Virus record (IMG/VR): IMGVR_UViG_3300037515_000482
Coordinates: 1-52,924 of that record
Strand: one strand, 5' to 3'
Length of the DNA: 52,924 nt
DNA from: a virus
Lineage: Duplodnaviria > Caudoviricetes
Shown here one piece after another: positions 13,911-39,295 of the stretch (within the stretch, counting starts at the first letter, position 1; every line of letters starts with the position of its first letter). The notes beneath the pieces are model-generated. The model was not told the origin of the DNA. It saw nothing but the letters and a program-made list of their open reading frames with translations, and ran no database searches. A program made the translations under genes and the position numbers.

Positions 13911-13920
13911 ACGCACGCCC

Positions 13921-14163
13921 ATGAGCGACACCGAACAGAAGACCTACGAACGCGTGGCCGATGTCCTCATCCAGGAGCTGGACCTCGTCGGAATCCCTGG
14001 GCGGGACGACCGCCTGGTGGAGGACCTGAACGCCGACTCCTTGGACATGGTCGAAGTGGCCATGGCCATCGAGGAGGTCTTCGAGCGCGAGATCTCCGAC
14101 GACGAGCTCAGCGGCTGGACAACCGTCGGCGACATCGTGGCCACCGTCGGGGGTGACGAGTGA
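13921..14163 (+). CDS. acpP: Acyl carrier protein
   Basis: 80 aa, acidic; EDLNADSLDMVEVAMAIEEVF with the phosphopantetheine Ser; TVGD; RBS AGGAG. Confidence 0.9.
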   Translation: MSDTEQKTYERVADVLIQELDLVGIPGRDDRLVEDLNADSLDMVEVAMAIEEVFEREISDDELSGWTTVGDIVATVGGDE

Positions 14164-20890: not shown

Positions 20891-23406
20891 CGTCCGGACC
20901 CGACGACTTGGTGCTTGGCCGGGCGATGCTGGCCCTCGAGGCGCGGGCGGCTGCGCTCGAGGCTCGCGAGACGGCCGAGAAGAGCCGGGTCTCCGTCCTG
21001 GACGGCTGGGACTGGCACGCGTGGCTCGGTGCGATGGTCCCGGGGCTTCGTGGGTTCTCCCCCTTCCACGAGGATTTCTGGAATTTCGTGTGGTCGATTG
21101 ATGCGGAGGGCAGCGCCGACCCGTTCGTCGGTGTGTGGGCGCGCGGCAGCGGGAAGTCGACGTCGGTCGAATCCGCCTCGCTCGCGCTGGGGCTTCGTGG
21201 CATGCGCCGCTACGTCTGGTACGTCCGGTCCACCCAGGACGCCGCGGACGACAGCGTGGGCACGAACATCGCGCACCTGCTCGAGTCGCCCCGGGTCGAG
21301 AAGTACTACCCGTGGCATGCAGAGCGGCAGCTCTCGAAGTATGGCCACTCGAAGGGCTGGAACTCGCAGCGCCTCCGGACCGCGGGCGGGTTCACGGTCG
21401 ATGGGATCGGCCTGGATACGGCGGCTCGCGGCCTGAAGGTCGAGGACCAGCGGCCCGACCTGATCGTCCTGGACGACGTCGACGGGAAGTTCGACACGCC
21501 GCGGACGACGAAGAAGAAACTCGACACCATCACCACCTCGATCCTCCCCGCCGGCTCGGCGAAGACCGTGGTGATCGGGATCCAGAACCTGATCATCCCG
21601 CACGGTGTGTTTTCCCGGCTGGTCGACGGGCGGGCGGATTTCCTGGCCACCCGGAAGGTTTCAGGTCCCGTCCCCGCGGTGCGCGGCCTGAAGACCGAGA
21701 TCCGCGAGGACGAAGAGGCCGGGCGCCGCCGGGCGTTCATCGTCGCCGGCACGCCGACCTGGGAGGGGCAGGACCTGGCCACATGCCAGAAGCTGATCGA
21801 CAACCTGGGCCTCGGGGCGTTCCTGAAGGAGTGCCAGCATGAGGTCCGGAAGAGGGAAGGGGCGCTCTGGACCGACGACATGCTGGCCCACCGCATCGAC
21901 GCCGCCCCTCGGCTCAAGCGAGTAGCCGTCGGCGTCGATCCGTCGGGAGGCGGCGACGCGATCGGGATCGTCGTCGCGGGGCTCGGCTACGATGGGCGCG
22001 GGTACGTGCTGGCCGACCTGACCCAGGACGGAGCGAGGGGCCCGCTCAACTGGGGGAAGGCCGCAGTCCGCTGCTACCTGGACCACGAAGCCGACCGGAT
22101 CGTCGCGGAGAAGAACTTCGGCGGCGACATGGTCGAGTCGAATATCCAGGTTGCGGCCCAAGCGCTCGACGCCGGCCGCGTCCCGGTCACGATGGTCCAC
22201 GCGTCGCGCGGCAAGGACGTGCGCGCCGAGCCCGTGGCCGCGCTCTACGAGAATGGCCTCATCTCCCACGTCGGTACGTTCCCGGAGCTTGAGGCGGAAC
22301 TGACCGGCTGGGTGCCCGGCGACCCGGACTCACCGAACCGGCTGGACGCATGTTTCGTCGCTGGTACGCGGGTCATGACTGGCCAAGGAGAGGTCCCCAT
22401 CGAACAGATTCAAATCGGCGATGCCGTCTGGACTCGCGCGGGCTGGCGTCCCGTTCTGCACTGCGGCCGCACCAGCGCAGAGACTGAGGTGCTCACCGTG
22501 CACCTGTCGGACGGCAGGGCGCTCACAGGTACGGGAAATCACCCGATATGGGTTGAGGGGAAGGGGTGGGCTGCACTTGATACTCTTGTGTGGGGTGACA
22601 TATTACTCTCATGCACAAGAGACGAGATACCATCCAGTTCCAAGGTGTCGTATACACCCGATTCCCTGACTCCCCCCTCCGGTCATCGCGGGTCTATTTC
22701 ATCCCGCCTCGCGGCAGTGGTCGAGAGATGCTCCACCGGGAAGTGTGGAAAGCGCATAACGGGCCGATCCCGCCGGGTGCACACATCCATCATCGGGACA
22801 AAGATCCCCTCAATAACGATCCGGAGAATCTGGAATGCGTTGACCCGGCGACCCATGCGGAGCGCCATGCGGGTGAGCACATCGACGCCCGCCGCGCATG
22901 GGCTGAGCGTATCCGCCCTCTCTCCGCAGAGTGGCACAGCTCACCCGAGGGGGTCGCGTGGCATGCTGAACACGGTAAACGCACTTGGGAGGGTCGAGAG
23001 CCCGACGAGATCACATGCAGCCATTGCGGGAAGCGCGCGAAGCGATTCAAAACGGGCAGTGAAACTCGCTTTTGCAGCCGCAATTGCTCCCGAGCTGCCG
23101 CCGATTCCGAGCGCCGATACGAGCGAGAGACGCCTTGCCCCGTCTGCGAGAAGCTCTTCTGGCAGAACAAGTACCGTCCAAAGCCTGGCGCGTGCTCCCG
23201 TAAGTGTGCTTGGGTTCTCCGAAAGCGAAAAAGCAGCGGTCTACAACCTTGAGGTTGCCGAACACCCTGAGTACTTCGCCAACGGCATCCTTGTGCACAA
23301 CTGCGTCTGGGTGCTGAGCGAGCTGATGCTCGGTTCGGCGCAGAAGATCTTCGACATCTGGTATCCCGGCATGAAGTCCACCGACGCGAAGGAGGGAGTA
23401 GCGTGA
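20887..23406 (+). CDS. terL: Terminase large subunit containing an intein
   Basis: Walker A ARGSGKST, Walker B LIVLDD, nuclease VGVDPS, EKNFGG, NRLDA. Confidence 0.93.
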   Translation: MTSGPDDLVLGRAMLALEARAAALEARETAEKSRVSVLDGWDWHAWLGAMVPGLRGFSPFHEDFWNFVWSIDAEGSADPFVGVWARGSGKSTSVESASLALGLRGMRRYVWYVRSTQDAADDSVGTNIAHLLESPRVEKYYPWHAERQLSKYGHSKGWNSQRLRTAGGFTVDGIGLDTAARGLKVEDQRPDLIVLDDVDGKFDTPRTTKKKLDTITTSILPAGSAKTVVIGIQNLIIPHGVFSRLVDGRADFLATRKVSGPVPAVRGLKTEIREDEEAGRRRAFIVAGTPTWEGQDLATCQKLIDNLGLGAFLKECQHEVRKREGALWTDDMLAHRIDAAPRLKRVAVGVDPSGGGDAIGIVVAGLGYDGRGYVLADLTQDGARGPLNWGKAAVRCYLDHEADRIVAEKNFGGDMVESNIQVAAQALDAGRVPVTMVHASRGKDVRAEPVAALYENGLISHVGTFPELEAELTGWVPGDPDSPNRLDACFVAGTRVMTGQGEVPIEQIQIGDAVWTRAGWRPVLHCGRTSAETEVLTVHLSDGRALTGTGNHPIWVEGKGWAALDTLVWGDILLSCTRDEIPSSSKVSYTPDSLTPPSGHRGSISSRLAAVVERCSTGKCGKRITGRSRRVHTSIIGTKIPSITIRRIWNALTRRPMRSAMRVSTSTPAAHGLSVSALSPQSGTAHPRGSRGMLNTVNALGRVESPTRSHAAIAGSARSDSKRAVKLAFAAAIAPELPPIPSADTSERRLAPSARSSSGRTSTVQSLARAPVSVLGFSESEKAAVYNLEVAEHPEYFANGILVHNCVWVLSELMLGSAQKIFDIWYPGMKSTDAKEGVA
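22577..22604 (+). promoter_or_regulatory. Candidate sigma70-type promoter inside the intein
   Basis: TTGATA-16 bp-CATATT with extended TG, in an AT-rich patch, 6 nt before ATG 22611. Confidence 0.45.
22611..23252 (+). CDS. HNH endonuclease with zinc fingers, nested out of frame within the intein
   Basis: LHREVW..HNGPIP.G.HIHHRDKDPLNNDPENLEC; CSHCG, FCSRNC, CPVC, CSRKC. Confidence 0.88.
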   Translation: MHKRRDTIQFQGVVYTRFPDSPLRSSRVYFIPPRGSGREMLHREVWKAHNGPIPPGAHIHHRDKDPLNNDPENLECVDPATHAERHAGEHIDARRAWAERIRPLSAEWHSSPEGVAWHAEHGKRTWEGREPDEITCSHCGKRAKRFKTGSETRFCSRNCSRAAADSERRYERETPCPVCEKLFWQNKYRPKPGACSRKCAWVLRKRKSSGLQP

Positions 23407-24246: not shown

Positions 24247-26487
24247 CTGGGCAAACGCGATTGGGTCAGCCGGATACTCGGGACCACCGACTTCGCGCCG
24301 AAGACCGGTGAAGCGCTAGCTACCACCACCATCCCCGACGCCCAGAAGAACGGCGCCCCCGCCTACCAGGCCAAGAGCGTCGGCAGCGGCGTCACTTTCG
24401 TTGGCGCGCCGGACTGGCGCAACGTCATCCGGCTCGACGCCCAGGTCGATCCCGACGCCGAGGAACTGACGCGCGGCATCGCGCTCGCCACGTCGGCCTA
24501 CTGCTACACGGCGATCATGTACCGGGCCCAGAAGATCGCCGAGCCGCCGCTCTACGTCGCCGAGGATACCGACGAGGGCGAGCTGTTCCTCACCGACCAC
24601 GAGATCGCGCCGCTGTTCCTCGACCCGAGCGAGGACTTCGACTTCGCCGAGCTACTCTCACTGACCGAGGCGTACCGGCTGATCACGGGCTCGGCGCTCT
24701 GGCTCAAGGCCCGCGACCGGGTCGGCCGCGTCGGCGGGCTCATGCCGTTCTCGGGCGACCAGGTGCGCACCTACGCCGCCGCCGGCCGGATCTACGGCCG
24801 CTTCGAGGTCCTGACCAACGGGTCCTGGCGCCCCTACCCGCCCGAGGACGTGGTCTACTTCCGCGACTTGAACCCCGGCTCATGGCGCACCAACCTGTCG
24901 CGCCTCGACGTCGCGCTCTCGCACCTCGACCTCGGTCACCAGGTCGCGCGCACCGTTCGCAACTTCATGCGCCGGGCCATGTTCCCGGGCGGGGTCGTTT
25001 CTCCGGACAAGGACTGGAACCCTAGCCCCGAGGAATGGGCCGCGTACAAGGCCGCGGTCGCTGCGTGGCACTCTGGTCCCGCGAATGCCGGAAACCCGCT
25101 GGTCGCGATCGGCGGCACGACGTTCTCCCGCGCGGCGTTCCCGCTCAAGGAGCTGCTGCCCACCGAAATCCTCGACCGGACCGAGGCCGTCGTGGGCTCG
25201 GTCTTTGGCGTCGCGCCCATCGTGCTCGGCTGGAAGGTCGGGCTCGAAAACAGCCCGTGGTCGCAGATGCTCCAGGCCCGGCAGAACGTGTACGAGGAGA
25301 CGCTCGTTCCGCGCTGGGGTGAGTACGGCCGCCAGATCAGCCGCCAGATGCTCACGCCCGAAGAGCGAGCGGCCGGCGTGCGCGTGCGTTTCGACCTCAC
25401 GGACCTGGCCGCGCTGAGGGCTGACGACGCGGACCGCTCGACCGTCTCCCAGACGAACCGCGAGATCTGGACCGTCAACGAGCGCCGCGCCTATACCGGC
25501 CAGCAGCCGCTACCGAAGGACGACCCCCGCGGCGACGAGCTGGGCGGCGCGACGCAAGCCGGCGGACTCGGTCTGTTCGGCGCGGCCTCGGAACTCGGCG
25601 CGCTCGCGCTGGCTGGTCATCCGGGCGGCGAAGTGTCGGGTGGGCTGGTGAAGGCGTTCGAGGCTGCGTATGCCCGGGGCGACGAAGGGCCCGCGGGCCT
25701 CGAAGGCAAGGCACTCGAATGGGCGCTCTTCGACACCGGCACCAAGGCTGCCGAGAGCACGTGGACGCGCGCCGCCTACGAGCTGCTGCAGGAGCAGTTG
25801 CGCCAGATATCGGCGCTGGCCGGCAAGCACATCCGAGCGGCGAAAGTCGTTGCGGCCCCGGACGCTGAGGCCAAAGCCGTCGGCGACATCGACCCTGAGT
25901 CGGCGACTGAGTTCATTCGCGCGTTGGCCGAGTGGATCCGCGAGAAGGGCCAACGCCAGCTGTCCAAGGGGCTTTACCCGCTGATCGTCAATACCGGCAC
26001 GGCGGGCGCGAAGCGAGCGGCGGCCCAGGTCGGCCTGAACTTCGGCGTGCTGCAGCCGGGCGTGCTGGCCTACGCCCAGGAGGAAGCCGGTTTCCTGGCG
26101 TCCGTGATGGGCGAGACGACGGGCAAGAAGGTCGCGGCCATCGTGCAGCGGCGCCTGTCCGCCGGCGGACTGCTCAGGGACCTGCGCAAAGACCTGCAGG
26201 AGAGCGCGGCGTTCAGTCGCACGCGCGCCCAGCTCGTGGCCCGTACCGAGACGGCCCGGGCCTGGAACGGCGCGGCGCGCCGGAGCCTCTCTGACTACGA
26301 AAGCTCCAGTGACGAGACGGTGCGCGTCACCAAGGAGTGGCTCACGGCGGGCGACGACCGCGTGAGAGACGAGCACGCAGGGATGGAAGGGGAGCAGCGG
26401 CGCATCGACGAGCCGTTCAGCAACGGGCTCCAAGAGCCGTCGGAACCGAACTGCAGATGTACTTCAGCGTTCAGCCTCGAGCGCTGA
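24247..26487 (+). CDS. Portal protein fused to a MuF-like head morphogenesis domain; start uncertain (CTG 24247 or ATG 24517)
   Basis: HK97-like portal motifs (LITGSALW, DVVYFR, FGVAP, WTVNERR); C-terminal ARTET, KEWLT.GD.RVR.EH, PNCRC. Confidence 0.85.
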   Translation: MGKRDWVSRILGTTDFAPKTGEALATTTIPDAQKNGAPAYQAKSVGSGVTFVGAPDWRNVIRLDAQVDPDAEELTRGIALATSAYCYTAIMYRAQKIAEPPLYVAEDTDEGELFLTDHEIAPLFLDPSEDFDFAELLSLTEAYRLITGSALWLKARDRVGRVGGLMPFSGDQVRTYAAAGRIYGRFEVLTNGSWRPYPPEDVVYFRDLNPGSWRTNLSRLDVALSHLDLGHQVARTVRNFMRRAMFPGGVVSPDKDWNPSPEEWAAYKAAVAAWHSGPANAGNPLVAIGGTTFSRAAFPLKELLPTEILDRTEAVVGSVFGVAPIVLGWKVGLENSPWSQMLQARQNVYEETLVPRWGEYGRQISRQMLTPEERAAGVRVRFDLTDLAALRADDADRSTVSQTNREIWTVNERRAYTGQQPLPKDDPRGDELGGATQAGGLGLFGAASELGALALAGHPGGEVSGGLVKAFEAAYARGDEGPAGLEGKALEWALFDTGTKAAESTWTRAAYELLQEQLRQISALAGKHIRAAKVVAAPDAEAKAVGDIDPESATEFIRALAEWIREKGQRQLSKGLYPLIVNTGTAGAKRAAAQVGLNFGVLQPGVLAYAQEEAGFLASVMGETTGKKVAAIVQRRLSAGGLLRDLRKDLQESAAFSRTRAQLVARTETARAWNGAARRSLSDYESSSDETVRVTKEWLTAGDDRVRDEHAGMEGEQRRIDEPFSNGLQEPSEPNCRCTSAFSLER

Positions 26488-26500
26488 GGCGGATCCTGAC

Positions 26501-27220
26501 ATGCCCATTTCCATTATCTGCCAGCACTGCGGGACGGAATTCAAGAGGCCGCCCTCGACCGCAAGGTCGGCGCGGTTTTGCTCGCAGGCATGCAACTACG
26601 CCTATCGCAGGGCGCATCGCGATTGGCCTAAGCCCGAGGTGCGCGTCGCGGTGACGTGTCGGCAGTGCGGGGAGGACTTCCAGGTCCAGCCGAGCGAGTC
26701 CCACCGCGTTTCCTGCTCATGGGAATGCGAAAAAGCATTCCGGGCTGCTCGCCCGACTGAGGAGCACTACCGATACACCGGGAAGATCGCCCGGCGGTGC
26801 AAGTGGTGCTCTGCGGAATTCGAGGTCCACCCCTGCAAGGTCAGAAAGGACCGCGGTCGGTTCTGCTCCAGATCGTGCCGAGCCGCATGGGTCTGCCGGC
26901 ACGCGCAGAACCGCGTGAGTCTGGCCGAACGTGAGTTCGCTCGGTTTCTCCGTAAAAACGGGTTCGACTTCGACACCCAGGTCCAGATAAAGAGCTACAT
27001 CGTGGACGTGGTATTTCCCTCCGAGCACGTGGCGGTCGAGTTCGACGGCGACTACTGGCACGACCTGCCGCGCACCGCTGCCAAAGACCGAAAGAAGGAC
27101 GCCGCGCTGCGTCAGCTCGGCTATGAGGTCATTCGCGTCCGCCAGACGGCGCACGAAGCGGACCCTGCGGCATCCCTGGCCCGCATAAGCTCCGCGATCA
27201 CACGGGAGGTTGTCCAATGA
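26501..27220 (+). CDS. Zinc-finger plus DUF559/Vsr-like endonuclease (putative homing endonuclease)
   Basis: Repeated CxxC...FCSxxC; VD...AVEFDGDYWH...D..KD..L..LGYEVIR. Confidence 0.8.
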   Translation: MPISIICQHCGTEFKRPPSTARSARFCSQACNYAYRRAHRDWPKPEVRVAVTCRQCGEDFQVQPSESHRVSCSWECEKAFRAARPTEEHYRYTGKIARRCKWCSAEFEVHPCKVRKDRGRFCSRSCRAAWVCRHAQNRVSLAEREFARFLRKNGFDFDTQVQIKSYIVDVVFPSEHVAVEFDGDYWHDLPRTAAKDRKKDAALRQLGYEVIRVRQTAHEADPAASLARISSAITREVVQ

Positions 27221-28116: not shown

Positions 28117-29490
28117 ATGAAAGACGCGATGAAGGCCAAGCGCGAGGACTTGAAGAAGCTCCTCGGCGAGCTGAAGACCGTGCAGGACCGCATGGGCGCG
28201 GGCGAGACCCTGACCCAGCCCGAGGCCGAGGCGGCCGACACGAAGGCCGTGGAGGCCGAGGCGCTGCAGACGGAGATCAAGACCTACGATGACCGCATGC
28301 GGCGCTTCTCCGGGCTGCAAGACGAGGGCTCGAAGATCTCCGACCCGGTGCTGCCGCCCGACGACAGCCTGGAGGACGGGCCCGAGACCAAGGCGGATCG
28401 CCGATCGCTGATCCAGCAGAAGGCGGCCGACGGCAAGCCGGTCGCGGCGTACATGCGCCTCGGCCACTACGTCGCGACGCAGAAGGCGCTGGCCGGGTTC
28501 GTGGCCCAGGGCATGCCGAAGGCTCAGGTCGTGCTGGCCTCGGTGCCCAGCCTGATCGCGCGCAAGGGCGAGCCGCTGGTGCCCGTCTCGCGCGAGATGC
28601 TCCAGGCAGCCTACGAGGCGAAGGCCGTGCCCACGCTCGGCACCGGCGTGATCGAGCCGGCGCGTGTGCCCGAGCTGGTGCGCGTCACCGAGCACGACCG
28701 GCTGCAGCTCCGGGACGTGCTCGACGTCCAGCCGACGAACTCCGACGCCGTGAAGTACACACGGCTTGTGAGCTACACGCGGGGCGCGGCTCCGGTCGCG
28801 AACTCGGCCGCGAAGCCCCAGGCCTCGATGGCCATGGACGCCGTGACCGAGCCGGTGCGCACCATCGCCGTGTGGATGCCGGTCGAGAATCAGCAGCTGT
28901 CGGACTACCCGGCGCTCGCAGGGCTCATCAACGGCGAGCTGCTCTACGACGTCGACAAGCACGTCGAGGAACTCGTGGTCTACGGCGACGGGACCGGCGA
29001 GAACTTCAACGGCATCGTCGCCGACCCGGCGGTGCTCGACTGCCGGACCGAGGTCGGTGACACGCTGATCGACATCGCGCGCCGGGGCGTGACCGACGTG
29101 CGGCGCGCGGGCTTCGAGCCGAACGCGATCCTGGTCGACCCGCTCGACTGGGAGGACATCGTGCTCGAAAAGGGTTCGGACAACCGCTACGTGTGGGTCG
29201 TCGTGACCGACGGCGCGACGCAGCGGCTCTGGGCCGTGCCCGTCATCGAGACGGTGGCCATGCAGGACTTCGCAGGGGTCGCGACCGAGGAGCGCAACCT
29301 GCTCGTCGGCGACTTCCGCCGCGGCGCCACGCTGTGGGACAAGGAGTCCGCGCAGATCTCGGTGGGCTGGATCAACGACCAGTTCGTCAAGAACCAGCGC
29401 ACCATCCTGGCTGAGATGCGCGCCGCGTTCGGCGTGAAGCGGCCGGGCGCGTTCCGGAAGCACCAGACGCAGGCGCCCAGCTCGAGCTGA
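28117..29490 (+). CDS. HK97-fold major capsid protein
   Basis: Coiled-coil delta domain; TIAVW, GDGTG, RLWAVPV, LLVGDF, FVKNQRTILAEMR. Confidence 0.93.
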   Translation: MKDAMKAKREDLKKLLGELKTVQDRMGAGETLTQPEAEAADTKAVEAEALQTEIKTYDDRMRRFSGLQDEGSKISDPVLPPDDSLEDGPETKADRRSLIQQKAADGKPVAAYMRLGHYVATQKALAGFVAQGMPKAQVVLASVPSLIARKGEPLVPVSREMLQAAYEAKAVPTLGTGVIEPARVPELVRVTEHDRLQLRDVLDVQPTNSDAVKYTRLVSYTRGAAPVANSAAKPQASMAMDAVTEPVRTIAVWMPVENQQLSDYPALAGLINGELLYDVDKHVEELVVYGDGTGENFNGIVADPAVLDCRTEVGDTLIDIARRGVTDVRRAGFEPNAILVDPLDWEDIVLEKGSDNRYVWVVVTDGATQRLWAVPVIETVAMQDFAGVATEERNLLVGDFRRGATLWDKESAQISVGWINDQFVKNQRTILAEMRAAFGVKRPGAFRKHQTQAPSSS

Positions 29491-29580: not shown

Positions 29581-30480
29581 ATGGCAGCCACGCGCAAAGT
29601 GACGGGTACGGTCCGCAAGCCGTCCGGCGAGCCGCATAGCGGCGTGCGCGTATCGTTCACGCTCGTTCCCGGCAGTTACACCCCCGACGATCAGTTCCCG
29701 CAGGGCAAGGTCTCGGTCACAACCGAGGCGGACGGCACGTTCGAGGCCACGCTCTGGACCAACGAAGTCGGTGAGATCGCGAGCGTCTACGTCTGCAAGC
29801 TGCCCTTCGGCGCCAGTTTTCGGTTCACGCTGCCCGCTGGCAGTACTCCGATTGAGCTATCTGTGCTGCGTCAGGCCGGAGTCACGCCGAGCGATCCGCA
29901 GTACGACACGCTCGTAACCTGGACGTTGGCTCAGTGGAAGAACGCGTGGGCCATCGGGACCGCTTATGCTCGTGGCGAGAAGGTGTCGCACGAGGGCTCA
30001 TCCTACATCGCCACAGCAGATACGACGGCGGGCCAAGAGCCCGGTGTCCATGCGTCGTGGGACCCGCTCGCGCTCCAGGGCGATCAAGGCATCCAGGGCA
30101 TCCAGGGCACCCAGGGCATCCAGGGCGAGCAAGGCACGAACGTCTACGACTTGGCGTTCTTCGTGGCGGGCAGCCCGGTTGATGACGAAATCGTAGGCAG
30201 CTTCGTCGCCGTTCGAGCAGTAACGCTCGCTGACGACTTCGCCGGGTCGCTGGCTCAGGCCGGAACAGCAGCTACGGCGGAGACGGTTTTCATCGTCAAC
30301 GTGAACGGCGCTCCGGTGGGCACCGTGACGTTCGCCGCCGCTGGGACGGTGGGCACACTCGTGACGACGGGCGGAGCGGTGGCGCTCGTGGCGGGTGACG
30401 TGCTGTCCCTCGTCGCTCCCGCTGTCGCGGATGCGACGATTGCCGACATCGCGATCACGTTGCTTGGGCTCGCTCCATGA
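29581..30480 (+). CDS. Putative virion decoration/fibre protein with CBM-like and short collagen-like segments
   Basis: W...TAYARGEKVSHEGSSY motif; (G-X-Q)n at about 30080-30135. Confidence 0.6.
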   Translation: MAATRKVTGTVRKPSGEPHSGVRVSFTLVPGSYTPDDQFPQGKVSVTTEADGTFEATLWTNEVGEIASVYVCKLPFGASFRFTLPAGSTPIELSVLRQAGVTPSDPQYDTLVTWTLAQWKNAWAIGTAYARGEKVSHEGSSYIATADTTAGQEPGVHASWDPLALQGDQGIQGIQGTQGIQGEQGTNVYDLAFFVAGSPVDDEIVGSFVAVRAVTLADDFAGSLAQAGTAATAETVFIVNVNGAPVGTVTFAAAGTVGTLVTTGGAVALVAGDVLSLVAPAVADATIADIAITLLGLAP

Positions 30481-31241
30481 GCCCTCTGGTGATGGTGCGC
30501 TCGCGTCGGCGTGGGTTCTCGCCTCTCAGCACGGGCAAGTTGCGCCTGTGGCTGCACGGTGGGGCGCGCACCTGGCAGGATGCGGCTATGACTGTTCCTG
30601 CTGCGCTGGACGGAGACGTAGTAGGTGGATGGGGCGAACGCAGCGGATTTCTCAACAACGTTACTCAGGCCACCACCGCCGCGAAGCCCGTGCTCAGGGT
30701 AGGTGCCCTGAACGGCAAGAACGTTCTGGAGTTCGACGGCACAGACGACCACCTGATCCGCACGAATACCGCTTCGCTGGAAGCCACGGACATGACCGTT
30801 ATGGCGGTGGCGAACGTGGTGGATCGGGTGACAAGTCTGGCGCTGGTGTCCCGGTGGGCAGGTGGGTTCCCCAGGTGGCGGCTGCAATTGCGTGAGAGCA
30901 CGCATCCGGCGAGCCAAGTAGTTCAGATGCTCTACGCGAACGCCAACGCAGCACGGACGGCTCCGGCGCTCAACACCTGGCACGTCTTCACGGGCGAGTA
31001 CAAGAGCGACGTGGGAGAAGTTCAGGTTCGACTCGACGATTCGACAGCCGTAGTCACTGCTGTGGCCGCAGGCGCTGTGAATCAGCGTGCGCTGTACGTG
31101 GGCGCCACCTGGGACGGGGCCGGCAATCCCTACTACTACCACAAAGGCTACATCGCGGAAATCTGCTATTTCGTCCCTTCGCTGACAGACGCTGAGCGCC
31201 TGCAAATGCTGGATTACTTCACGGCAGGATGGGGGCTCTGA
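30477..31241 (+). CDS. LamG/concanavalin-like virion protein
   Basis: LRLWL, FDGTDDHL, GYIAEI...LTDAE pattern. Confidence 0.7.
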   Translation: MSPLVMVRSRRRGFSPLSTGKLRLWLHGGARTWQDAAMTVPAALDGDVVGGWGERSGFLNNVTQATTAAKPVLRVGALNGKNVLEFDGTDDHLIRTNTASLEATDMTVMAVANVVDRVTSLALVSRWAGGFPRWRLQLRESTHPASQVVQMLYANANAARTAPALNTWHVFTGEYKSDVGEVQVRLDDSTAVVTAVAAGAVNQRALYVGATWDGAGNPYYYHKGYIAEICYFVPSLTDAERLQMLDYFTAGWGL

Positions 31242-31570
31242 TGGCGACCCGGACAGCCTACGCGCACCGACACTTCATCATCGTCGCAGTTGCGAAAGCG
31301 ACGGAGGCTGCTCGGGACGCGAAGGCGTGGGACCCAGACACGGGAGGAGATAGGACGTTCACCCACGTTCGTCTTTCAGCAACGGGTGCGGAGCCAGCTA
31401 CGCATTACGGGGCCGACACGGCAAGCACCGCTGCAATGCGTACCGGGGTATTGGCATCGCGGGACGGCAGTGTGATCTACGCGCTGTACCGGGAAGCGGA
31501 CGGCTGGACGTGGGAGAAGGCGTTGAGGGCAAGTGGGCTGAAGCTGATTGTAAAGGACCAGGAGAGATAA
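31241..31570 (+). CDS. Hypothetical protein
   Basis: TGATG coupling. Confidence 0.6.
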   Translation: MATRTAYAHRHFIIVAVAKATEAARDAKAWDPDTGGDRTFTHVRLSATGAEPATHYGADTASTAAMRTGVLASRDGSVIYALYREADGWTWEKALRASGLKLIVKDQER

Positions 31571-31571
31571 T

Positions 31572-32504
31572 GTGACCTACCAGGACCAGATCGCATCGGA
31601 CGGCAGCATCATCACGGCGGGCTACCGTGAGTGCGCGGAGCGATACCGGCAGATCGCCGCCGCGCTCACGACGCTCAGGCGTCCGTTCACGGTGCTCGAC
31701 CTGGGTGCGGCGTCCGGCTATTTCAGCCTGCGACTCACCGAGGACTTCGGCGCGCGCTGCGTCGCGGTTGACCGAAGCCGCGACGTCATGGCCGCCGAGG
31801 GGCGTGTCGCGGCTGTCGTGCATGGTGACCTCACTTCCGAGCAGATCCGGCGCCAGGGCACGTTCGACGTGATCCTCGCGCTGTCGTTCTTGCACCACCA
31901 GAACAATTGGCGCGCGGTGCTCGACGTGCTGGTGCGTTCGACTCGCTCCGCGCTGATCGTCGAAACGCCGAACCCGCGCGAGCGCCTGAAGCAAGCCGTG
32001 GCGCGCCACGAGCTGAGCGCGATCGAGGCCGCGCTGGCAAAAGCGGGGATGGTCCGCATCGGTACGAGCCCGAGCGTGTGGGACCCGTCGCTCCAGCGTG
32101 GGCTCTGGCTGCTCAGGCGTGAGGGCATCCGTGTTCAGGGCCACGTGTTCAGCGGGGGCGGAAATAATGGGACGTGGGTGCCACGCATGCGCTCCGAGTT
32201 GGGCGTGGTGCTCGGTTACGAGCCCTACGGTGGAAGCCTCAACGTCCGTTTGCCGCGCGCCTTCCGGCTCGGCGCCTATGCGATGGAGTACGTCGACGGG
32301 CAGAGAAGGCGCGGAGGACGCAAGGGCGGCGATTACCAGATCTGGCACGCGCGCGTCGAGGGTTACGACGGCCCGGCCCATGTGATGCGGCCCGGCGTCC
32401 GAGGCCATGGTCGCGACGTCCTGGAGGTCTGGGCGCCGGTGAAGCTTCGGGACACGCTGTCGCTCAGTGATGGCGATCCCATCATCTTGAGGGTCGGCGC
32501 ATGA
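31572..32504 (+). CDS. WbdD-like SAM methyltransferase fused to a CTP-dependent riboflavin-kinase-like (DUF120) domain
   Basis: YQ...RECAERY..I...RPFTVLDLGAASGYFSL...FDVILALSFLHH; then G.VFSG.G...LGYEPYGGSLNV...H...LEVWAPVKLRD.LSLSDGD. Confidence 0.75.
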   Translation: MTYQDQIASDGSIITAGYRECAERYRQIAAALTTLRRPFTVLDLGAASGYFSLRLTEDFGARCVAVDRSRDVMAAEGRVAAVVHGDLTSEQIRRQGTFDVILALSFLHHQNNWRAVLDVLVRSTRSALIVETPNPRERLKQAVARHELSAIEAALAKAGMVRIGTSPSVWDPSLQRGLWLLRREGIRVQGHVFSGGGNNGTWVPRMRSELGVVLGYEPYGGSLNVRLPRAFRLGAYAMEYVDGQRRRGGRKGGDYQIWHARVEGYDGPAHVMRPGVRGHGRDVLEVWAPVKLRDTLSLSDGDPIILRVGA

Positions 32505-33601
32505 CCGCGTTCGCGGCCGCCCCGTACTGGGATCGGCGCTACGCCACGGGCGGCACGTCCGGCGCGGGCTCGCGTGGGGCCGAGGCAGAGGAAAAGGTCC
32601 GGCTCGTGCAGCGCGTGATCGACGAGCATGGCGTGCGCTCCGTGCTCGATCTCGGGTGCGGCGATGGCTACGTGGCCTCCCGCCTCAGGGTCGCGGAATA
32701 CGTCGGCTACGACCCCGCGCCCTCGGCGCTCGCGCTCTGCCGTGCGGCCATGCCGGGCCGGGCGTTCGTGGGTGAGTTGCCCGCTGGCCCGTTCGACCTC
32801 GTGCTTTCGCTCGACGTGATGTTCCATCTCGTCGATGATGCCGACTACCGGGAGCATATCTTCTGGCTGCTCTCGCTGGGCTCGTGCGCGCTGGTGTGGT
32901 CGACCGACCACGCGGAGCGCGGGGCGAAGCACGTGCTGCACCGGAAATGGACGGCCGACGTCCCACCGGGCTGGGCCGTGACGCGGATCCCCACGGAGCA
33001 CAAGAGCGCCTATCTTCTCACGCGGAAGACGCCCGGCCGGGCCGAAGACGTGGAGGGGCTGATCCCGGCTTCGACCGGTCAGCTGCTTGAGAAGCTGGCG
33101 CGCAAGGTACCCGAGGGACAGCGCGTCGTGGAGATCGGCGCGTATACCGGCCGGAGCACGGCCTTCCTGGCGAGGGGATCCGCGGCGGGGCGCTGCGGCC
33201 TGCCGGTGCTCTCGATCGACCCGCACGGGATGGCTGGCGCCGAGATGGGACGCGGGGGCCGCTTCGCTGGCGAGCACGTGCGCGCGACATACCTCCGCAA
33301 CCTGGCCGACGTGGGCGCGCTGCCTCACGTCGAGGCGGTGCGAGCGCTGTCGTCGCGCGCGTCGCTGCCGCGGGAGCCGATCGGTCTGCTCTGGATCGAC
33401 GGCGACCATAGCCGCGCCGCCGTGGTGGAGGACGTTCGACGCTGGGCGCCGCTCGTGGCCCCGGGCGGGTTCATCGTCTTCGACGACTACGGCACGCATC
33501 ACCCGGGCGTGAACGACGTCGTGCACCGGATGATGAAGGATCCGCAGTGGCAGGACTGGCTCGCATTCCCGAAGCCCCTGGCCTGGGCGAGGCGCGCATG
33601 A
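32501..33601 (+). CDS. Double methyltransferase (class I plus Methyltransf_24-like)
   Basis: YWDRRY..G.TSGAGS...VLDLGCGDG; VVEIGAYTGRST...WIDGDHS...PGG.IVFDDY. Confidence 0.85.
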   Translation: MTAFAAAPYWDRRYATGGTSGAGSRGAEAEEKVRLVQRVIDEHGVRSVLDLGCGDGYVASRLRVAEYVGYDPAPSALALCRAAMPGRAFVGELPAGPFDLVLSLDVMFHLVDDADYREHIFWLLSLGSCALVWSTDHAERGAKHVLHRKWTADVPPGWAVTRIPTEHKSAYLLTRKTPGRAEDVEGLIPASTGQLLEKLARKVPEGQRVVEIGAYTGRSTAFLARGSAAGRCGLPVLSIDPHGMAGAEMGRGGRFAGEHVRATYLRNLADVGALPHVEAVRALSSRASLPREPIGLLWIDGDHSRAAVVEDVRRWAPLVAPGGFIVFDDYGTHHPGVNDVVHRMMKDPQWQDWLAFPKPLAWARRA

Positions 33602-34218
33602 AGATCCCGCGCATCATCCATCGGATATGGATCGAGGGCAGCCCGCCCATGCCGAGCGCTTTTGTGGCCAACGGCGTGCGTTGGGGCGCGCTCAACCCCG
33701 GCTGGACCGTGCGCCACTGGGCCAGGCCGGACTTCCGGATGCGGAACGCGTGCCTGTACCGTAGGGCTCCCGCGAACGACGCGCTGCGCTACCGGTCGGA
33801 CCTGCTCCGGCTGGAGATCCTGGCGCGCGAAGGCGGCGTGTACGTCGACACCGACATGGAGCCGCTTCGCCCGCTCGACGAGCTGCTCACGGGGCATGCG
33901 GCCGTCGCGGCCTACAGCCCGAATCGGTGGAAGGGCGAGCGCGTGTTGTCGAACGCGTTTTTGGCGGCCGTGCCCGGCCATCCGTGGATCCTACGCTGCG
34001 TCGAGAAGATGCCGCTCTCGATCCAGGCCCACCGCGGGCAGTTCCTGGCGATGGTCACGGGCCCCCACCACGTCAACCGCTGCCTGCGTCCCGGTGACGA
34101 CGTGCACCTCCTGGAGCCCGCGACCCTTTACCCGACGACCGCAATCGAACTCGCCGGCGCCTACGCCTTCCACGCCTGGGCGAATCGTGCCCAGCTCAAG
34201 CGGGAGGCGCTCGCGTGA
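33598..34218 (+). CDS. GT32 (OCH1/DXD-type) glycosyltransferase
   Basis: KIPRIIHRIW, SDLLRLEIL..EGGVYVDTD, TGP, HAW. Confidence 0.9.
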   Translation: MKIPRIIHRIWIEGSPPMPSAFVANGVRWGALNPGWTVRHWARPDFRMRNACLYRRAPANDALRYRSDLLRLEILAREGGVYVDTDMEPLRPLDELLTGHAAVAAYSPNRWKGERVLSNAFLAAVPGHPWILRCVEKMPLSIQAHRGQFLAMVTGPHHVNRCLRPGDDVHLLEPATLYPTTAIELAGAYAFHAWANRAQLKREALA

Positions 34219-35957
34219 AGCCCCTCCTCGACCTCGCGGTGGTCACGAGCTGCCACAATTACGGCCGATATCTCGCGGAGTGGACAGGGAGCCTCGTCGC
34301 GCTCACGACGTGGCCCCGGGTCGTCGCGCTCGTGGACAACGGCAGCACCGACGCCACGCCCGCTCAGATGGAGGCCGCGGCCCGGCTGCTCCGAGCCGCC
34401 GGACTCCCCGACGTGCGCACTGAGCGAATGGCCCTTGCCAACTTCGGCGCCGCCCGGAACAGGGCCGTCGAGCTGGGCGCGGGCACCGAGTGGGTGATGC
34501 ACATGGACGCCGACGACACGTTCATGCCGCACTGCCTGGACGAGGTGGCCCGGCTGATGCCGTCGGCCGACGTGATCCCGCTCGGTTACCAGCGCTCGGG
34601 TGACCTGGCCGCCGGGCCCTCGAACCGCACGAGACTCTACCAGCACTCCCGCGGCCAGAGCACGCTGAAAAGCTCCGCCCCTGCGTCCGGCGTGAGCCCG
34701 TTCCGCCGCGCGCTCTGGGAGCACACGCCCTATCGTGACGACATGCCGGGCGGCTGGGACACCGCGCTTTGGATCGGGTTCGCGCATCAGAACGCGCGGT
34801 TCGTCGCGGTGCGCACCCGGCCGTGCTTTTTCTACCGCCAGCACGCGGACTCGATCTTCAACACGCGCCGGGTCAACCGGCGCCGTGGTCGCCGGGTCGG
34901 CGCCAAGCTCCAGAACCTGCGCCGCGGCCGCACGGGCGTGAGCGTGCTGGTGCCGCGCCGGAGCGACGGGGGCGGGCCCCGCGACGTCGCCTGGGCGTGG
35001 CTCCGCGCGCGCTACGAGGCGCTCTACCCGGAGTGGGAGGTCGTCGAGGGCACGGACATCGGAGGCCCATTCTGCAAGGGCGCGGCCGTGGCCGACGCCG
35101 TGGGCCGCAGCCGCGGCAATACGCTGGTGATCGCCGACGCGGACTGCGTAATGAGCGCTGAGGCGCTCAGGGAGGCCGTCGCGCTCGTCGAGATCGGCGA
35201 GGCGCCGTGGGTCGTGCCGCACACGCTCGTGCACCGGCTGGACCGGGCTGCGTCCGAGGCCGTGGTCGCCCTGGGGTCGCGGGCCGATCCGCCCTTCAAA
35301 GGCGCCTACGCCCGCAAGGCCTATGTGGGATTCGCCGGCGGCGGCTTCATCGTCGTCGACGCCTCGGCGTGGGACGCGACGGGCGGGATGCCCATGGCGT
35401 TCGCCGGCTGGGGTGCGGAGGACGAGGCGACCGCAGTGATCCTCGATACCCTCGTCGGCCCGCACGTCCGACTCGAGCACGACCTCTGGCACCTCTGGCA
35501 CCCGCACGCCCGGTCGGATTCCGCCAAGGCGCAGCAGCTTGCGAACCGGGTGCTCTATCGACAGCTCGCGAGCCTCGCGGGCGACCCCGACGCGCTGTTC
35601 GGCGTGCTCGAGCGGCTCGCCCTGGGTGAGGCTCCGGAGCAGGCCGTCGCCTGCGTGGGTGCCGGCGTGCTCATGGTCGCGTTGATGGACTTCCAGCGCG
35701 GCACCGAAGTGATCAAACGGGGCGGTCCATTCCTGGCCACGGAGGACGAGGCACGCCGCCACGAGACCCGGCCGCGCAAGATCGCCGTGCGCGCCGATTC
35801 CCCGCTCGCGCACGTGCGGCGTCAGGACCTCGCGGAGATGGCGGCCGCACGAAACAAGCAGCGCGCGCGCAACGACGCCGCGCGCCAGGGGGCGGAGGAG
35901 CGCGTGGCCGCCCTGCACGATCATGAGGCCCGGCTCGCTGCCGCGGCCGGCGACTAA
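34215..35957 (+). CDS. Tandem GT2-like glycosyltransferase
   Basis: HNYGRYL, VDNGSTD, ARN, MDADD; second domain ADAD, F.GWGAED, HLWHP. Confidence 0.88.
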   Translation: MKPLLDLAVVTSCHNYGRYLAEWTGSLVALTTWPRVVALVDNGSTDATPAQMEAAARLLRAAGLPDVRTERMALANFGAARNRAVELGAGTEWVMHMDADDTFMPHCLDEVARLMPSADVIPLGYQRSGDLAAGPSNRTRLYQHSRGQSTLKSSAPASGVSPFRRALWEHTPYRDDMPGGWDTALWIGFAHQNARFVAVRTRPCFFYRQHADSIFNTRRVNRRRGRRVGAKLQNLRRGRTGVSVLVPRRSDGGGPRDVAWAWLRARYEALYPEWEVVEGTDIGGPFCKGAAVADAVGRSRGNTLVIADADCVMSAEALREAVALVEIGEAPWVVPHTLVHRLDRAASEAVVALGSRADPPFKGAYARKAYVGFAGGGFIVVDASAWDATGGMPMAFAGWGAEDEATAVILDTLVGPHVRLEHDLWHLWHPHARSDSAKAQQLANRVLYRQLASLAGDPDALFGVLERLALGEAPEQAVACVGAGVLMVALMDFQRGTEVIKRGGPFLATEDEARRHETRPRKIAVRADSPLAHVRRQDLAEMAAARNKQRARNDAARQGAEERVAALHDHEARLAAAAGD

Positions 35958-35972: not shown

Positions 35973-36479
35973 ATGGCCGCAGGACGAGATACCGCACGAT
36001 TCACCCGGCAGATCCGCCGGGAACAGCACGAGCGCAACCGGATCGCGACCCAGGAAGCAGAGGAGCGTCGCACCCAGCTTGAGCGTGAGGCGGGAATGAC
36101 TCCCTCCGATCTGCGCCGCGCCAAGGCGCGGGAACGCCGGACGTCGCTGCTCGTGCGTCGAGGCCATCGGGTGCTCGGCGTGACCGAGGCGATGGACCGC
36201 GCGCGCTACGAAGACAAGATGGACCGGGGCGGCGAGGACAAGGTGGTGGAGCCGGAGTTCGACTTCGAGCCGGAGCCGAAAGAGGAAGAGATCCGCGACG
36301 TCTTCGAGCCCGATGCCACCCTCACCGACTTTGCGTCCTGGCAGGCGCGGAAAAAGGCCGAGGAGTACGGGCTCACCACCGAGATGCTCGCCGACCAGCA
36401 CCGGTCTTCGGTGGCCGGCTTCACCGTCGCCGACATCGAGCGGATCGCGGCTGAGCTGACCGGTGAGGGCACCGCCTGA
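35973..36479 (+). CDS. Protein with C-terminal E3-binding (PSBD)-like motif
   Basis: FASWQARKKAEEYGL...GFTVADI; RBS GGAGG. Confidence 0.6.
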   Translation: MAAGRDTARFTRQIRREQHERNRIATQEAEERRTQLEREAGMTPSDLRRAKARERRTSLLVRRGHRVLGVTEAMDRARYEDKMDRGGEDKVVEPEFDFEPEPKEEEIRDVFEPDATLTDFASWQARKKAEEYGLTTEMLADQHRSSVAGFTVADIERIAAELTGEGTA

Positions 36480-36793
36480 TGGCCGCCGCCCGGGTGCAGG
36501 AACGGTTGCTGGCCCTGGCGGGCCGCCGCGTCCGGGCGGCGATGCGCCGCGCCTACCCCGCACTCGCGGCCGGAGGCGCGGAGCGCGTCCGCGTGGCACG
36601 CCCCGACGCTGTGCCCTCCGACCCGCTGGACGGCGTGACGTTCGCTTCCCCGCGGGCCCGGGCGGTCGCGGAGGAGCTCGGGCTCAGCTGGGGCGACTTC
36701 ACGCACAGCGCCATCGGCGCGAGCGGGGACGGCGGGTACCGCACGAGCGACGTGCGCGCCGTCGCCGCCGGGCGTGAAGGAGGCGGCCCATGA
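36479..36793 (+). CDS. Protein with E3-binding (PSBD)-like motif
   Basis: FASPRARAVAEELGL...SGDGGYRTSDV. Confidence 0.6.
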   Translation: MAAARVQERLLALAGRRVRAAMRRAYPALAAGGAERVRVARPDAVPSDPLDGVTFASPRARAVAEELGLSWGDFTHSAIGASGDGGYRTSDVRAVAAGREGGGP

Positions 36794-37326
36794 TCGAGAT
36801 CTCCGCGCTCAAGGTGTGGCTGGGCGTCACGGTCAGCACGCATGACGACGTGCTCACGGCCCTGGAGGCCCGGGCGGTCGCGACGATCGAGCGTGAGCTG
36901 GACTGGTACTTCGGCGAGCCGCGCGACGCGGTCGAGGTGCTCGACGGAACGGGAGGAGCCGTGCTCTACCTGCGCCAGCCGCCGGTCGACGGGACGGTCA
37001 CGCTCGCGAGCCGGAGCGGGCCCACGGGGTCGTGGACCACGATGGACTCCACGGACTTCGAGCTCGACGGCCGTGCGCTGTACGCCAGCGGGATCTGGAC
37101 GCGAGGCGTTCGCAACTACCGGGCGACGTACCAGGAGGGCTTCGTGGCAGCGCCCCAGGACATCGAGCAGCTCGTGCTGGACCTGGTGGCCGCGCTCTGG
37201 CGTGGCCGGGGCCGGGAGGGCCTCGCGTCCGAGTCGATCGGCGACTATGCCTACACGGTCAAGGATCTCCAGGAGCTGCCCCGCTGGGTCGGCGTGCTGG
37301 GCGCGTGGAGGCGTGGACGGATATGA
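36790..37326 (+). CDS. Head-tail connector (gp6-like)
   Basis: LKVWLGV...DD.L, Y..GF...P.DI, SESIGDYAY. Confidence 0.8.
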   Translation: MIEISALKVWLGVTVSTHDDVLTALEARAVATIERELDWYFGEPRDAVEVLDGTGGAVLYLRQPPVDGTVTLASRSGPTGSWTTMDSTDFELDGRALYASGIWTRGVRNYRATYQEGFVAAPQDIEQLVLDLVAALWRGRGREGLASESIGDYAYTVKDLQELPRWVGVLGAWRRGRI

Positions 37327-38617: not shown

Positions 38618-39295
38618 ATGGACCTGACCCTTCTCAACCTGGAGACCATCCTCCGTAAGATCGGCAGGGGGGTGGTGGCCTACGCCGTGGACGGCGGAGG
38701 CGATCCCACCGTCTGGGACGGCACGAGCGCTTTGACGCTCGCGCATCTGACGGACACCGAGGGCGACATCTCGTTCCGGGCCAACGCGACCGAGGCGGCG
38801 CTCACGCTGCCCGAGATCGCGGGCGAGGCGCCGTTCGAGGTGACGTACACGGGCGAGGCGCCCGAGCTCGAGATCCCGCTGTTCATGGCGGACCCCGACA
38901 TGCTCGACATCATCAGCCCGATCGACTCGGCGAGCGCGGGCCACATCCGCGTCCGCGAGGTGAGCGAGCGCACGATCGTGCTCTTCCCCGAGGCGCTGTT
39001 CCGCAAGTCGGACGGCACCTACCCGGAGCTGTCCTACGGCGTGGGCGGCTGGACGCTCGGGGGTGCGGCCCTCGACGCGGCGCATCAGACGCTGCTCGCC
39101 ACGAGCGTGTGGTTCTGGCGCGGCTATTTCGCGCGTGCCGACCGGACGTTCAAGGGCGGCCACGGCAACGACGCCAAGAATATCGTGCCGGTGACGCTGC
39201 GGGTCATGATGCACCCGACCATGCCCGACGGCCACCGGCTCTACACGACCGGTGACCCGGCGCTGGCCAGCATCGACATCCTGGGCACGAGCTGA
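38618..39295 (+). CDS. Major tail tube protein (putative)
   Basis: Position before the frameshifted chaperone pair and tape measure. Confidence 0.7.
   Translation: MDLTLLNLETILRKIGRGVVAYAVDGGGDPTVWDGTSALTLAHLTDTEGDISFRANATEAALTLPEIAGEAPFEVTYTGEAPELEIPLFMADPDMLDIISPIDSASAGHIRVREVSERTIVLFPEALFRKSDGTYPELSYGVGGWTLGGAALDAAHQTLLATSVWFWRGYFARADRTFKGGHGNDAKNIVPVTLRVMMHPTMPDGHRLYTTGDPALASIDILGTS

Follow-up and report, generated by a model that had tools for sequence, protein, structure and literature searches.

The 52,924-nucleotide contig IMGVR_UViG_3300037515_000482, a complete tailed-phage genome (hereafter the window), carries four coupled plus-strand genes, A to D, that probably encode a phage system for virion O-glycosylation acting on the phage's own capsid and tail-tube subunits. 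Virion glycosylation is the best-supported reading of these sequences, from which we infer the sugar coat. The virion is taken as the target because parts of the cassette have homologues in mycobacteriophage cassettes, because the same slot behind the capsid gene is used in unrelated capsid lineages, and because a serine at the capsid C terminus is linked to adjacent glycosyltransferase genes; an earlier note, which had proposed a virion-glycosylation role for this cassette, is supported by all three. The acceptors are most likely the C-terminal serines of the capsid protein (...APSSS) and the tail-tube protein (...LGTS).

Gene A (31572-32504, +; 310 aa, GTG start) begins 1 nt after the preceding open reading frame (ORF) ends, and three 4-nt start/stop overlaps then join A to gene B (32501-33601, +; 366 aa; ATGA), B to gene C (33598-34218, +; 206 aa; ATGA), and C to gene D (34215-35957, +; 580 aa; GTGA). 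For gene C, the ORF finder gave 33547-34218, and the ATG at 33598 overlapping the stop of B is the likely start. Promoter-like and terminator-like sites within the block are not above shuffled expectation, which fits a single late operon. No convincing transmembrane segment was found in the four proteins with a 19-residue Kyte-Doolittle window (maxima: A, 0.91; B, 1.38; C, 0.97; D, 1.59), residues 473-491 of D being a borderline hydrophobic stretch, and no flippase or GtrA/GtrB-like Pfam families were found in the cassette or the other scanned ORFs. We count both the soluble character of the proteins and their coupling in one late operon in favor of action on the virion. The earlier note had described four translationally coupled genes with three methyltransferase, one kinase-like, one GT32, and two GT2-like domains, placed in the late operon between the capsid/decoration genes and the head-tail connector, and had seen no transmembrane segments, flippase, or GtrA/B-like genes. 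Pfam and PHROGs return the same domain count and the same flanks, and the coupled starts and stops, the hydropathy profiles, and the Pfam scan bear out the remainder.

Gene A joins a class I methyltransferase domain (Pfam PF13489 at residues 26-136, E = 3.7e-11; limits approximately 1-182) to a domain of the family CTP-dep_RFKase (PF01982 at residues 192-308, E = 6.7e-15, 55.6 bits against a cut-off of 25; limits approximately 188-310). What the earlier note had called kinase-like does belong to a phosphotransferase family, but its fold is the cradle-loop barrel of archaeal riboflavin kinases and not that of protein kinases. When an AF2 model of gene A (pLDDT 89.5, pTM 0.90) is searched with Foldseek, the four best matches are all WbdD structures, followed by RbkR and MJ0056, and the kinase-like domain has target TM-scores of 0.75 and 0.69 to 2vbu and 2oyn, respectively. 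Among PDB sequences, a profile of the gene A family (20 members) finds WbdD at E = 1e-13 (54 bits) with the next methyltransferase at E = 5.5e-5, and the single gene A sequence finds WbdD at E = 5.4e-4; the riboflavin kinase MJ0056 is found at E = 4.4e-9 with the single sequence and 4.5e-12 with the profile.

The WbdD match is informative at the level of individual residues. According to the structural report on WbdD, this enzyme adds a phosphate to the mannose that ends the O9a O-antigen and next methylates that phosphate, which stops polymerization; the report places H132, H133, and R203 in the phosphate site around the methyl group and R31, C33, N34, Q35, and R36 in a pocket unusual among methyltransferases (PMC3482155). 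R31, C33, R36, H132, and H133 align to R19, C21, R24, H108, and H109 of gene A, each present in 20/20 family members; N34 and Q35 are not kept. The nucleotide-binding motifs given for RbkR (SGMGEGR, YxGTLN, and KYLR; PMC5397151) have counterparts in gene A at 194-SGGGNNG, 219-YGGSLN, and 291-KLR, and the motif cores are conserved in the family (G195 in 19/20, G197 in 18/20, and G221, S222, N224, and L292 in 19/20 each). Because the methyltransferase keeps the WbdD phosphate-pocket residues and is fused to an intact nucleotide-dependent phosphotransferase, gene A is predicted to make a methyl-phosphate cap; a WbdD-like order of "phosphorylate, then methylate," with a kinase of another fold, is likely. 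The same pocket residues and three nucleotide-binding motifs lend support to the methylated, possibly phospho-capped glycan that had been proposed for this phage.

Gene A is built like WbdD of Escherichia coli O9a, with a methyltransferase at the N terminus and a phosphotransferase behind it in a single chain, and has the conserved pocket and phosphate-site residues; WbdD is also its top structural match. Gene A differs in that its kinase domain is of the PF01982 type rather than eukaryotic-protein-kinase-like, there is no C-terminal coiled-coil ruler (the model ends at residue 310 with the barrel domain), there is no membrane-associated polyprenol-linked substrate, and the context is a phage head module. 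With the archaeal CTP-dependent (cytidine triphosphate-dependent) riboflavin kinases RibK MJ0056 and RbkR it has in common the fold (TM-score on target, 0.69 to 0.75) and all three nucleotide-binding motifs, whereas the phage domain is fused to a glycan-type methyltransferase, lies in phage head modules, and in three representatives is further fused to GT2 or FkbM domains. These longer proteins (P0035 and P0059, methyltransferase-kinase-GT2; P0054, methyltransferase-kinase-FkbM methyltransferase) tie gene A to glycan synthesis. A role in riboflavin or flavin metabolism was considered and rejected, since in every case the domain is joined to a WbdD-like methyltransferase and has a glycosyltransferase as neighbor, and in some cases it is also joined to GT2; judging from its fusion to glycan enzymes, a sugar is the probable phosphate acceptor and riboflavin an unlikely one. 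We found no description of a PF01982 domain in phage glycosylation in a literature search that was not aimed at that question. The fusion is by no means confined to the window: a 90%-clustered protein collection holds 44 gene A relatives at E <= 1e-3, most with both domains, and an exhaustive search of 1.84 billion 50%-identity representatives gives 739 at E <= 1e-3 and 24 at E <= 1e-30, with both domains covered in 41 of the 150 listed.

Gene B has two methyltransferase domains, a generic class I domain (PF13489 at residues 35-156, E = 9.8e-11) and a second at approximately 181-350 that matches Methyltransf_24 (residues 210-330, E = 3.8e-18) and, weakly, TylF/CmcI. The best solved relative of the second domain is 6g7d (E = 2.6e-8), followed by macrolide-pathway sugar O-methyltransferases; 6g7d, titled only "Methyltransferase domain protein" in the PDB, is presumably the methylmannose-polysaccharide 1-O-methyltransferase of Mycobacterium hassiacum. 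Gene C matches the GT32 DXD region (PF04488, E = 1.4e-9, 39 bits against a cut-off of 23) with the motif Y-V-D-T-D, and D84 and D86 are invariant among nine homologues. Its PDB matches are weak and centered on the motif (E = 1.4e-3 and weaker), and are to GT-A domains that glycosylate proteins; there is a hint here that C may be the priming enzyme.

Gene D contains two GT-A domains, the first matching GT2 (PF00535 at residues 9-137, E = 5.7e-17) and phrog_9549 (2.4e-37), and the second, at approximately 242-445, matching phrog_1721, "galactosyl transferase" (2.6e-13), with PF02709 and PF13506 both below the Pfam cut-off. The AF2 model (pLDDT 84.2) places these domains at approximately 1-237 and 241-470, and models the linker poorly; a long helix near the C terminus (530-577) has no shown relation to the WbdD ruler. 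Gene D has no match among PDB sequences, and the fold search alone was informative: the best Foldseek matches are to K4CP (K4 chondroitin polymerase, 2z86; E = 3.3e-16), PmHS2 (heparosan synthase 2, 8vh8), and LARGE1 (7zvj), and single-domain TarS and SpsA are found too. Like the first three, D has tandem GT-A domains in a soluble chain, each with a D-x-D motif (D98/D100/D101 and D308/D310; all are invariant except D308, which comes close), although the identity to them is 10 to 15% and the global TM-score is approximately 0.3. Polymerase activity is only suggested by the model, and it is speculation that a polymerizing D and a capping A would form a coherent "extend then terminate" pair.

The comparison with mycobacteriophages bears directly on what these enzymes act upon. 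Virion O-glycosylation was reportedly shown in 2023 in Che8 (gp108-110), Corndog (gp35-38), and Myrna, and little sign of glycosylation is said to have been seen across the wider phage population. Another source reports Che8, Corndog, and Myrna as glycosylated and calls Che8 gp110 and Corndog gp38 the essential enzymes (PMC12363180); by our searches these two are GT25-like. Corndog gp35-38, a methyltransferase and three transferases inside the virion operon, were suspected as early as 2015 of modifying the capsid (PMC4351075). The window cassette resembles both sets in having phage-encoded soluble glycosyltransferases together with a TylF-type O-methyltransferase, resembles Corndog in the location of these genes inside the virion operon, and shares with both phages capsid and tail-tube proteins that end in serine. 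The second domain of D weakly matches Che8 gp109 and Corndog gp37 (residues 240-429; BLASTP E = 8e-4 and 9e-7, respectively), and the second domain of B weakly matches Corndog gp35 (residues 195-333, E = 6e-4) and resembles the C-terminal part of Che8 gp108, a GT2 fused to a TylF-type methyltransferase; Corndog gp36 has no BLASTP match to the cassette. Additional here are the GT32/DXD enzyme, a second generic methyltransferase, and the WbdD-like methyltransferase-riboflavin-kinase-fold fusion. The slot also differs, being after the capsid gene in the window, between portal and protease in Corndog, and at the far genome end in Che8, approximately 50 kb from the capsid gene.

The cluster J mycobacteriophages, represented by Baka (gp11-gp16 and gp20, as annotated), carry a cassette in the same slot from capsid gene to connector, annotated in the order major capsid protein, glycosyltransferase, kinase, methyltransferase, glycosyltransferase, glycosyltransferase, GalT ... 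connector. Baka gp13 and gp14 are homologous to window proteins (gene A residues 1-182, 36% identity, E = 7e-26; gene D residues 7-217, 36% identity, E = 3e-33), and in both phages a kinase adjoins the WbdD-like methyltransferase. The Baka kinase, gp12, is a separate gene with a short protein-kinase/APH-like fold, in contrast to the fused PF01982 fold of gene A, and Baka has five single-domain glycosyltransferases, no GT32, and a capsid protein ending in phenylalanine. Across a phage collection searched by tblastn, the gene A methyltransferase gives partial matches in 45 records, all of them mycobacteriophages, and the first domain of D matches 54 records (44 Mycobacterium, 7 Streptomyces, 2 Microbacterium, and 1 other). 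The earlier note regarded the known systems as consisting of glycosyltransferases only, which is not the case: Che8 gp108 has a TylF-type methyltransferase domain, Corndog gp35 is a methyltransferase, and cluster J has a kinase and a methyltransferase. Virion glycosylation by phage enzymes was thus already known, as were methyltransferases, and in cluster J a kinase, in known or annotated cassettes. New here are the enzyme set (GT32, tandem GT2, double methyltransferase, and WbdD-like-riboflavin-kinase fusion), its occurrence in unrelated head modules beyond the known mycobacteriophages, and the predicted methyl-phosphate cap.

A scan of viral contigs gave 14 loci, and a full-length gene A homologue was found by tblastn in 13. 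Genes in the high-GC loci were located by tblastn with third-position GC filtering; a greedy longest-ORF gene caller was dropped because it took antisense ORFs. A gene C homologue lies beside that of gene A in 13/13 loci, and the first methyltransferase domain of B and gene D have homologues in 8/13 and 3/13, respectively; the G+C content of the loci ranges from 52.8% to 71.5%. The earlier note had suggested surveying the order of capsid gene, cassette, and connector, and in all seven loci with the upstream side examined (L002-L006, L008, and L014) the cassette comes after the capsid gene. The capsids are an HK97 type with an S78 protease in the window and L002-L005, a P22-coat-like type with an SPP1-type portal in L008 and L014, and another HK97 type with a scaffold in L006, a Streptomyces aidingensis prophage region. 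At least three capsid lineages, unrelated to one another, have the core pair of methyltransferase-kinase and GT32 behind the capsid gene. Among genome contigs, full-length gene A homologues are limited to two records, the S. aidingensis contig and a phage-like 58.8-kb "Bacilli bacterium" contig from a metagenome-assembled genome. We note that the latter (L004, identical to L099; 52.8% G+C) has terminase, portal, capsid, cassette, and tail genes homologous to those of the window and looks like a phage genome binned into the metagenome-assembled genome.

Loci that lack homologues of the window cassette carry different carbohydrate genes in the slot after a serine-ending capsid gene. L039 has GT1, a TOD1-like transferase, a TupA-like ATP-grasp enzyme, and GT2 (7997-13169); L064 has an FkbM methyltransferase, GT2, a GNAT acetyltransferase, a DegT aminotransferase, and GT2 (6750-11741); L030 and L034 have a PIG-L deacetylase; and the related contigs L065 (1318-4026) and L075 (1097-3196) have, directly after the capsid gene, a GT2/GT7C enzyme fused to a TagF-like CDP-glycerol glycerophosphotransferase, which hints at teichoic-acid-like phospho-glycans on capsids. 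With these alternative contents, the slot resembles a glycan island of variable composition.

The capsid protein ends in serine in 8/8 cassette-bearing loci (window, ..APSSS; L002-L006, L008, and L014, ..AGS, ..ASS, ..VGS, ..TGS, ..AGS, ..LGS, and ..LGS, respectively), and so does the tail-tube protein in 4/4 (window, L003, L004, and L006: ..GTS, ..IVS, ..SVS, and ..LGS); ORFs assigned to the tail tube by position only in L008 and L014 end in ..PNS and ..PTS. The corresponding ends are ..KTGS and ..SDGS in Che8 gp6 and gp11, and ..LVGS and ..KGDS in Corndog gp41 and gp49; the glycans of the Che8 and Corndog proteins reportedly sit at the C terminus. Among 19 window proteins inspected, only the capsid and tail-tube proteins end in serine. 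To relate the terminal residue to the enzymes, we assembled 80 viral loci with homologues of the window capsid together with L002-L005 and the window (85 loci) and scored a locus as glycosyltransferase-positive when tblastn placed a relative of any glycosyltransferase query (E <= 1e-5) in the 6 kb following the capsid gene. As queries we used window C and D together with 13 glycosyltransferases found by Pfam in 146 downstream ORFs of 27 of 29 selected representative loci. The sequences tested were partial contigs with flanks of 7 kb. A locus was left out where fewer than 3 kb followed the capsid gene and they showed no glycosyltransferase; this removed 25 loci and left 60 assessable ones.

The capsid protein ends in serine in 26 of the 27 glycosyltransferase-positive loci and in threonine in the other (L062), and the association with terminal serine gives a Fisher p of 1.1e-4 by locus and 0.010 on 24 clusters at 70% identity (table 12/3/2/7). 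In the 11 representative loci with a capsid not ending in serine, a Pfam glycosyltransferase was found in 0/11. Close relatives illustrate the pattern: the capsid of L027, 65% identical to that of the window over 179 aa, ends in ..HQTQAPVP where the window has ..HQTQAPSSS, and no glycosyltransferase is present in the following 3.96 kb. Within one 70% cluster, L042 (..VVSS) has an island of GT-D, FkbM, methyltransferase, and GT2 genes, and L046 and L055 (..VTG) and L043 (..PAT) are without one. We also note that in L020, L021, L046, and L063, where the capsid does not end in serine (two end in threonine), a Methyltransf_23 domain lies after the capsid gene, as the C-terminal part of a 534-aa ORF in L020 and as a separate ORF beside an unassigned ORF of 287 to 441 aa in the others; no Pfam glycosyltransferase was found after the capsid gene in these four, and the arrangement may be a different capsid-modifying pair.

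Several observations weigh against action of the cassette on the terminal serines of the virion, or against parts of the predicted chemistry. The capsid ends in serine in 17 of the 33 glycosyltransferase-negative loci as well (other residues in 16), and serine is common without adjacent enzymes, as in a 17-member cluster ending in ..FDAAPS; the tail tube of the glycosyltransferase-negative L027 likewise ends in ..GSGS. The loci in the association test are related rather than independent, and their glycosyltransferase status derives from the available flank only; absence from the flank is weak evidence, since the contigs are partial and the Che8 enzymes lie far from the capsid gene. The Baka capsid protein ends in ..APSF, with its tail tube ending in ..GLS. 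The cassette is linked to Che8 and Corndog proteins by weak matches (E = 1e-6 to 1e-3), and BLASTP of the cassette against Che8 gp110 and Corndog gp38 finds no homologue. In gene A, the positions of WbdD R203 and Y16 are outside the aligned region, and for gene D the agreement with the polymerases is in the shared two-domain build, with TM-scores as low as approximately 0.32 (root mean square deviation, 17 A) and 10 to 15% identity. Finally, L004 has the riboflavin-kinase-like fusion plus a small APH-like kinase; with both types in one locus, we no longer read the riboflavin-kinase domain as a plain substitute for the cluster J kinase, and keep the comparison as an analogy only.

If the cassette does glycosylate the virion, the reaction would take place in the host cytoplasm late in infection. 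A glycosyltransferase would first prime the serine, and our guess is that the small GT32/DXD enzyme C would do so. The two-domain D would then extend the chain, possibly with an alternating repeat, as its architecture is that of two-site polymerases, and B would O-methylate the sugars. Last, A would end the chain as WbdD does in the E. coli O9a O-antigen, its riboflavin-kinase-fold domain phosphorylating the terminal sugar with a nucleoside triphosphate, probably CTP, and its WbdD-like domain methylating the phosphate. A fully specified version, in which a length-controlled glycan polymer sits on the last serine of the capsid and tail tube, D is a glycosaminoglycan-polymerase-like extender, A is a CTP-dependent sugar kinase and phosphate-methylating terminator, and the slot is a hypervariable glycan island resembling an O-antigen locus and reaching beyond the mycobacteriophages, is considerably more tentative than virion glycosylation as such, and we regard it as possible but doubtful.

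Other explanations need to be weighed against virion glycosylation of the capsid and tail tube. The particle may be glycosylated on different proteins, namely the products of the 299-, 254-, and 113-aa ORFs that lie directly upstream of gene A, and a small ORF between capsid gene and cassette is indeed seen elsewhere (L002, 234 aa; L004, 201 aa; L005, 178 aa; L006, 236 aa). We consider this unlikely, although it is the least improbable of the alternatives: in L008 and L014 gene A directly follows the capsid gene with no ORF between, the intervening ORFs are not homologous across lineages, 0/3 of those in the window end in serine whereas the capsid and tail tube do, and the link to terminal serine holds across capsid families. 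That the enzymes instead make a free methylated oligo- or polysaccharide in the cytoplasm, unattached to the virion and altering host metabolism in the manner of the mycobacterial polymethylated polysaccharides, would accord with the solubility of all four proteins and with 6g7d, if it is the enzyme we take it to be, as the best solved relative of the second domain of B, and extension and capping require no protein acceptor. Such a product would leave unexplained the fixed slot in three capsid lineages and the link to terminal serine or threonine, and some cassette domains resemble products of Che8 and Corndog genes, which act on virions; we judge it improbable.

Very slightly less probable again is modification of a host cell-envelope glycan, whether for lysogenic conversion, superinfection exclusion, or receptor masking. 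An integrase gene (12297-13688; PF00589 in a Pfam scan of 46 further ORFs) indicates that the phage is probably temperate, similar glycosyltransferases and methyltransferases build O-antigens, and WbdD is itself an O-antigen enzyme. The cassette recalls the Gtr serotype-converting cassettes, which are likewise glycosylation genes borne by phages. The Gtr proteins (GtrA, GtrB, and a Gtr-type transferase) are membrane proteins expressed from the prophage, whereas the four proteins here are soluble, are encoded in a late operon, and come with no membrane-spanning segments, flippase, or GtrA/B-like genes; the genes are coupled within the structural operon with no plus-strand promoter-like site of their own, they are far from the integrase region, and their slot behind the capsid gene is conserved across lineages. 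Hypermodification of phage DNA as a defense against restriction, with bases being glycosylated, phosphorylated, or methylated, is in our estimation the most improbable of all. Phage DNA glycosylation and kinase-dependent thymidine hypermodification are known, and PHROGs labels the family of the second domain of B (phrog_2675) "DNA methyltransferase." However, Pfam and PDB searches place the methyltransferases with sugar, phospho-sugar, and small-molecule O-methyltransferases (WbdD, 6g7d, and the TylF/mycinamicin enzymes), a separate C5 DNA methylase is encoded at 16118-17707, the same Pfam scan found no hydroxymethylase or base-hypermodification gene in the 46 other ORFs, and the head-module position and the terminal serine would go unexplained.

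The cassette sits in a late block with genes running from head to tail. Upstream are genes for a portal-MuF protein, an endonuclease (HNH family by PHROGs; DUF559/REase domains by Pfam), an S78 protease, and the HK97-family major capsid protein (28117..29490, +; 457 aa; PF05065, E = 1.6e-37; phrog_10), followed by three small ORFs of 299, 254, and 113 aa (29581..31570, +; phrog_7049/5073, tail-fiber-like, and phrog_10356). The 299-aa ORF (29581-30480) has a CBM5_12 match, a collagen-like G-x-Q run (GDQGIQGIQGTQGIQGEQGT), and a fiber-like C-terminal part, and the 254-aa ORF is virion structural-like; the 113-aa ORF (31229-31570), the stop of which is 1 nt before the start of gene A, has no assigned function. 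These three may be head decoration or fiber proteins. Downstream are two small charged ORFs of 168 and 104 aa (35973..36793, +), with no Pfam or PHROG family except a sub-threshold E3_binding match on the 104-aa ORF; in L004, a weak homologue of the 168-aa protein, matching its C-terminal part, lies immediately ahead of the cassette. The head-tail adaptor gene (36790..37326, +; PF05135, E = 8.9e-7; phrog_442, E = 1.7e-23) forms the downstream border of the slot and is followed by the genes for the tail tube and the tape measure. The putative major tail (tube) protein (38618..39295, +; 225 aa; C terminus ...IDILGTS) is assigned by gene order, being before chaperone-like ORFs and the tape measure, and by 42 to 56% identity to its L003 and L004 equivalents.

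The whole record for this genome is one contig with a G+C content of approximately 68% and nearly all plausible genes on the plus strand. A 10-kb portion had no megablast match to 50,697 phage records, the relatives of the major capsid protein there are distant (none of the 25 phage records listed exceeds 37.5% identity), and no tRNA genes were found in the genome. The 839-aa large terminase (20887-23406) has Hint/intein-splicing domains at residues 489-805 approximately, C-terminal to the nuclease domain, and its gene looks to carry an inserted intein. In the portal gene (24517-27220), a Mu F-like head-morphogenesis domain is fused at residues 538-649. Right after the integrase gene, a 96-aa ORF (13873-14163) encodes a phosphopantetheine-attachment, acyl-carrier-protein-like domain (PF00550, E = 2.2e-8), an unusual phage cargo, and the early region encodes a 253-aa pentapeptide-repeat protein (5774-6535; PF00805, E = 1e-74) that may be a DNA mimic or anti-restriction protein.

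To our knowledge, sugar coating of phage particles has been shown in only a small number of mycobacteriophages, in which it makes recognition by antibodies less effective. Judged by the window and its relatives, this trait is apparently modular and mobile between unrelated sets of head genes. It also seems to be marked by a terminal serine on the capsid and tail tube, from which glycosylated phages could be predicted, a help when therapeutic phages are chosen or engineered. The methyltransferase-kinase fusion brings together a WbdD-type phosphate methyltransferase and a fold known only as archaeal riboflavin kinase. If the predicted reactions are correct, the PF01982 fold would for the first time have a substrate other than a flavin, a protein-linked glycan capped with methyl phosphate would be known for the first time, and the O-antigen-style logic of "polymerize then cap" would operate on a virus particle.

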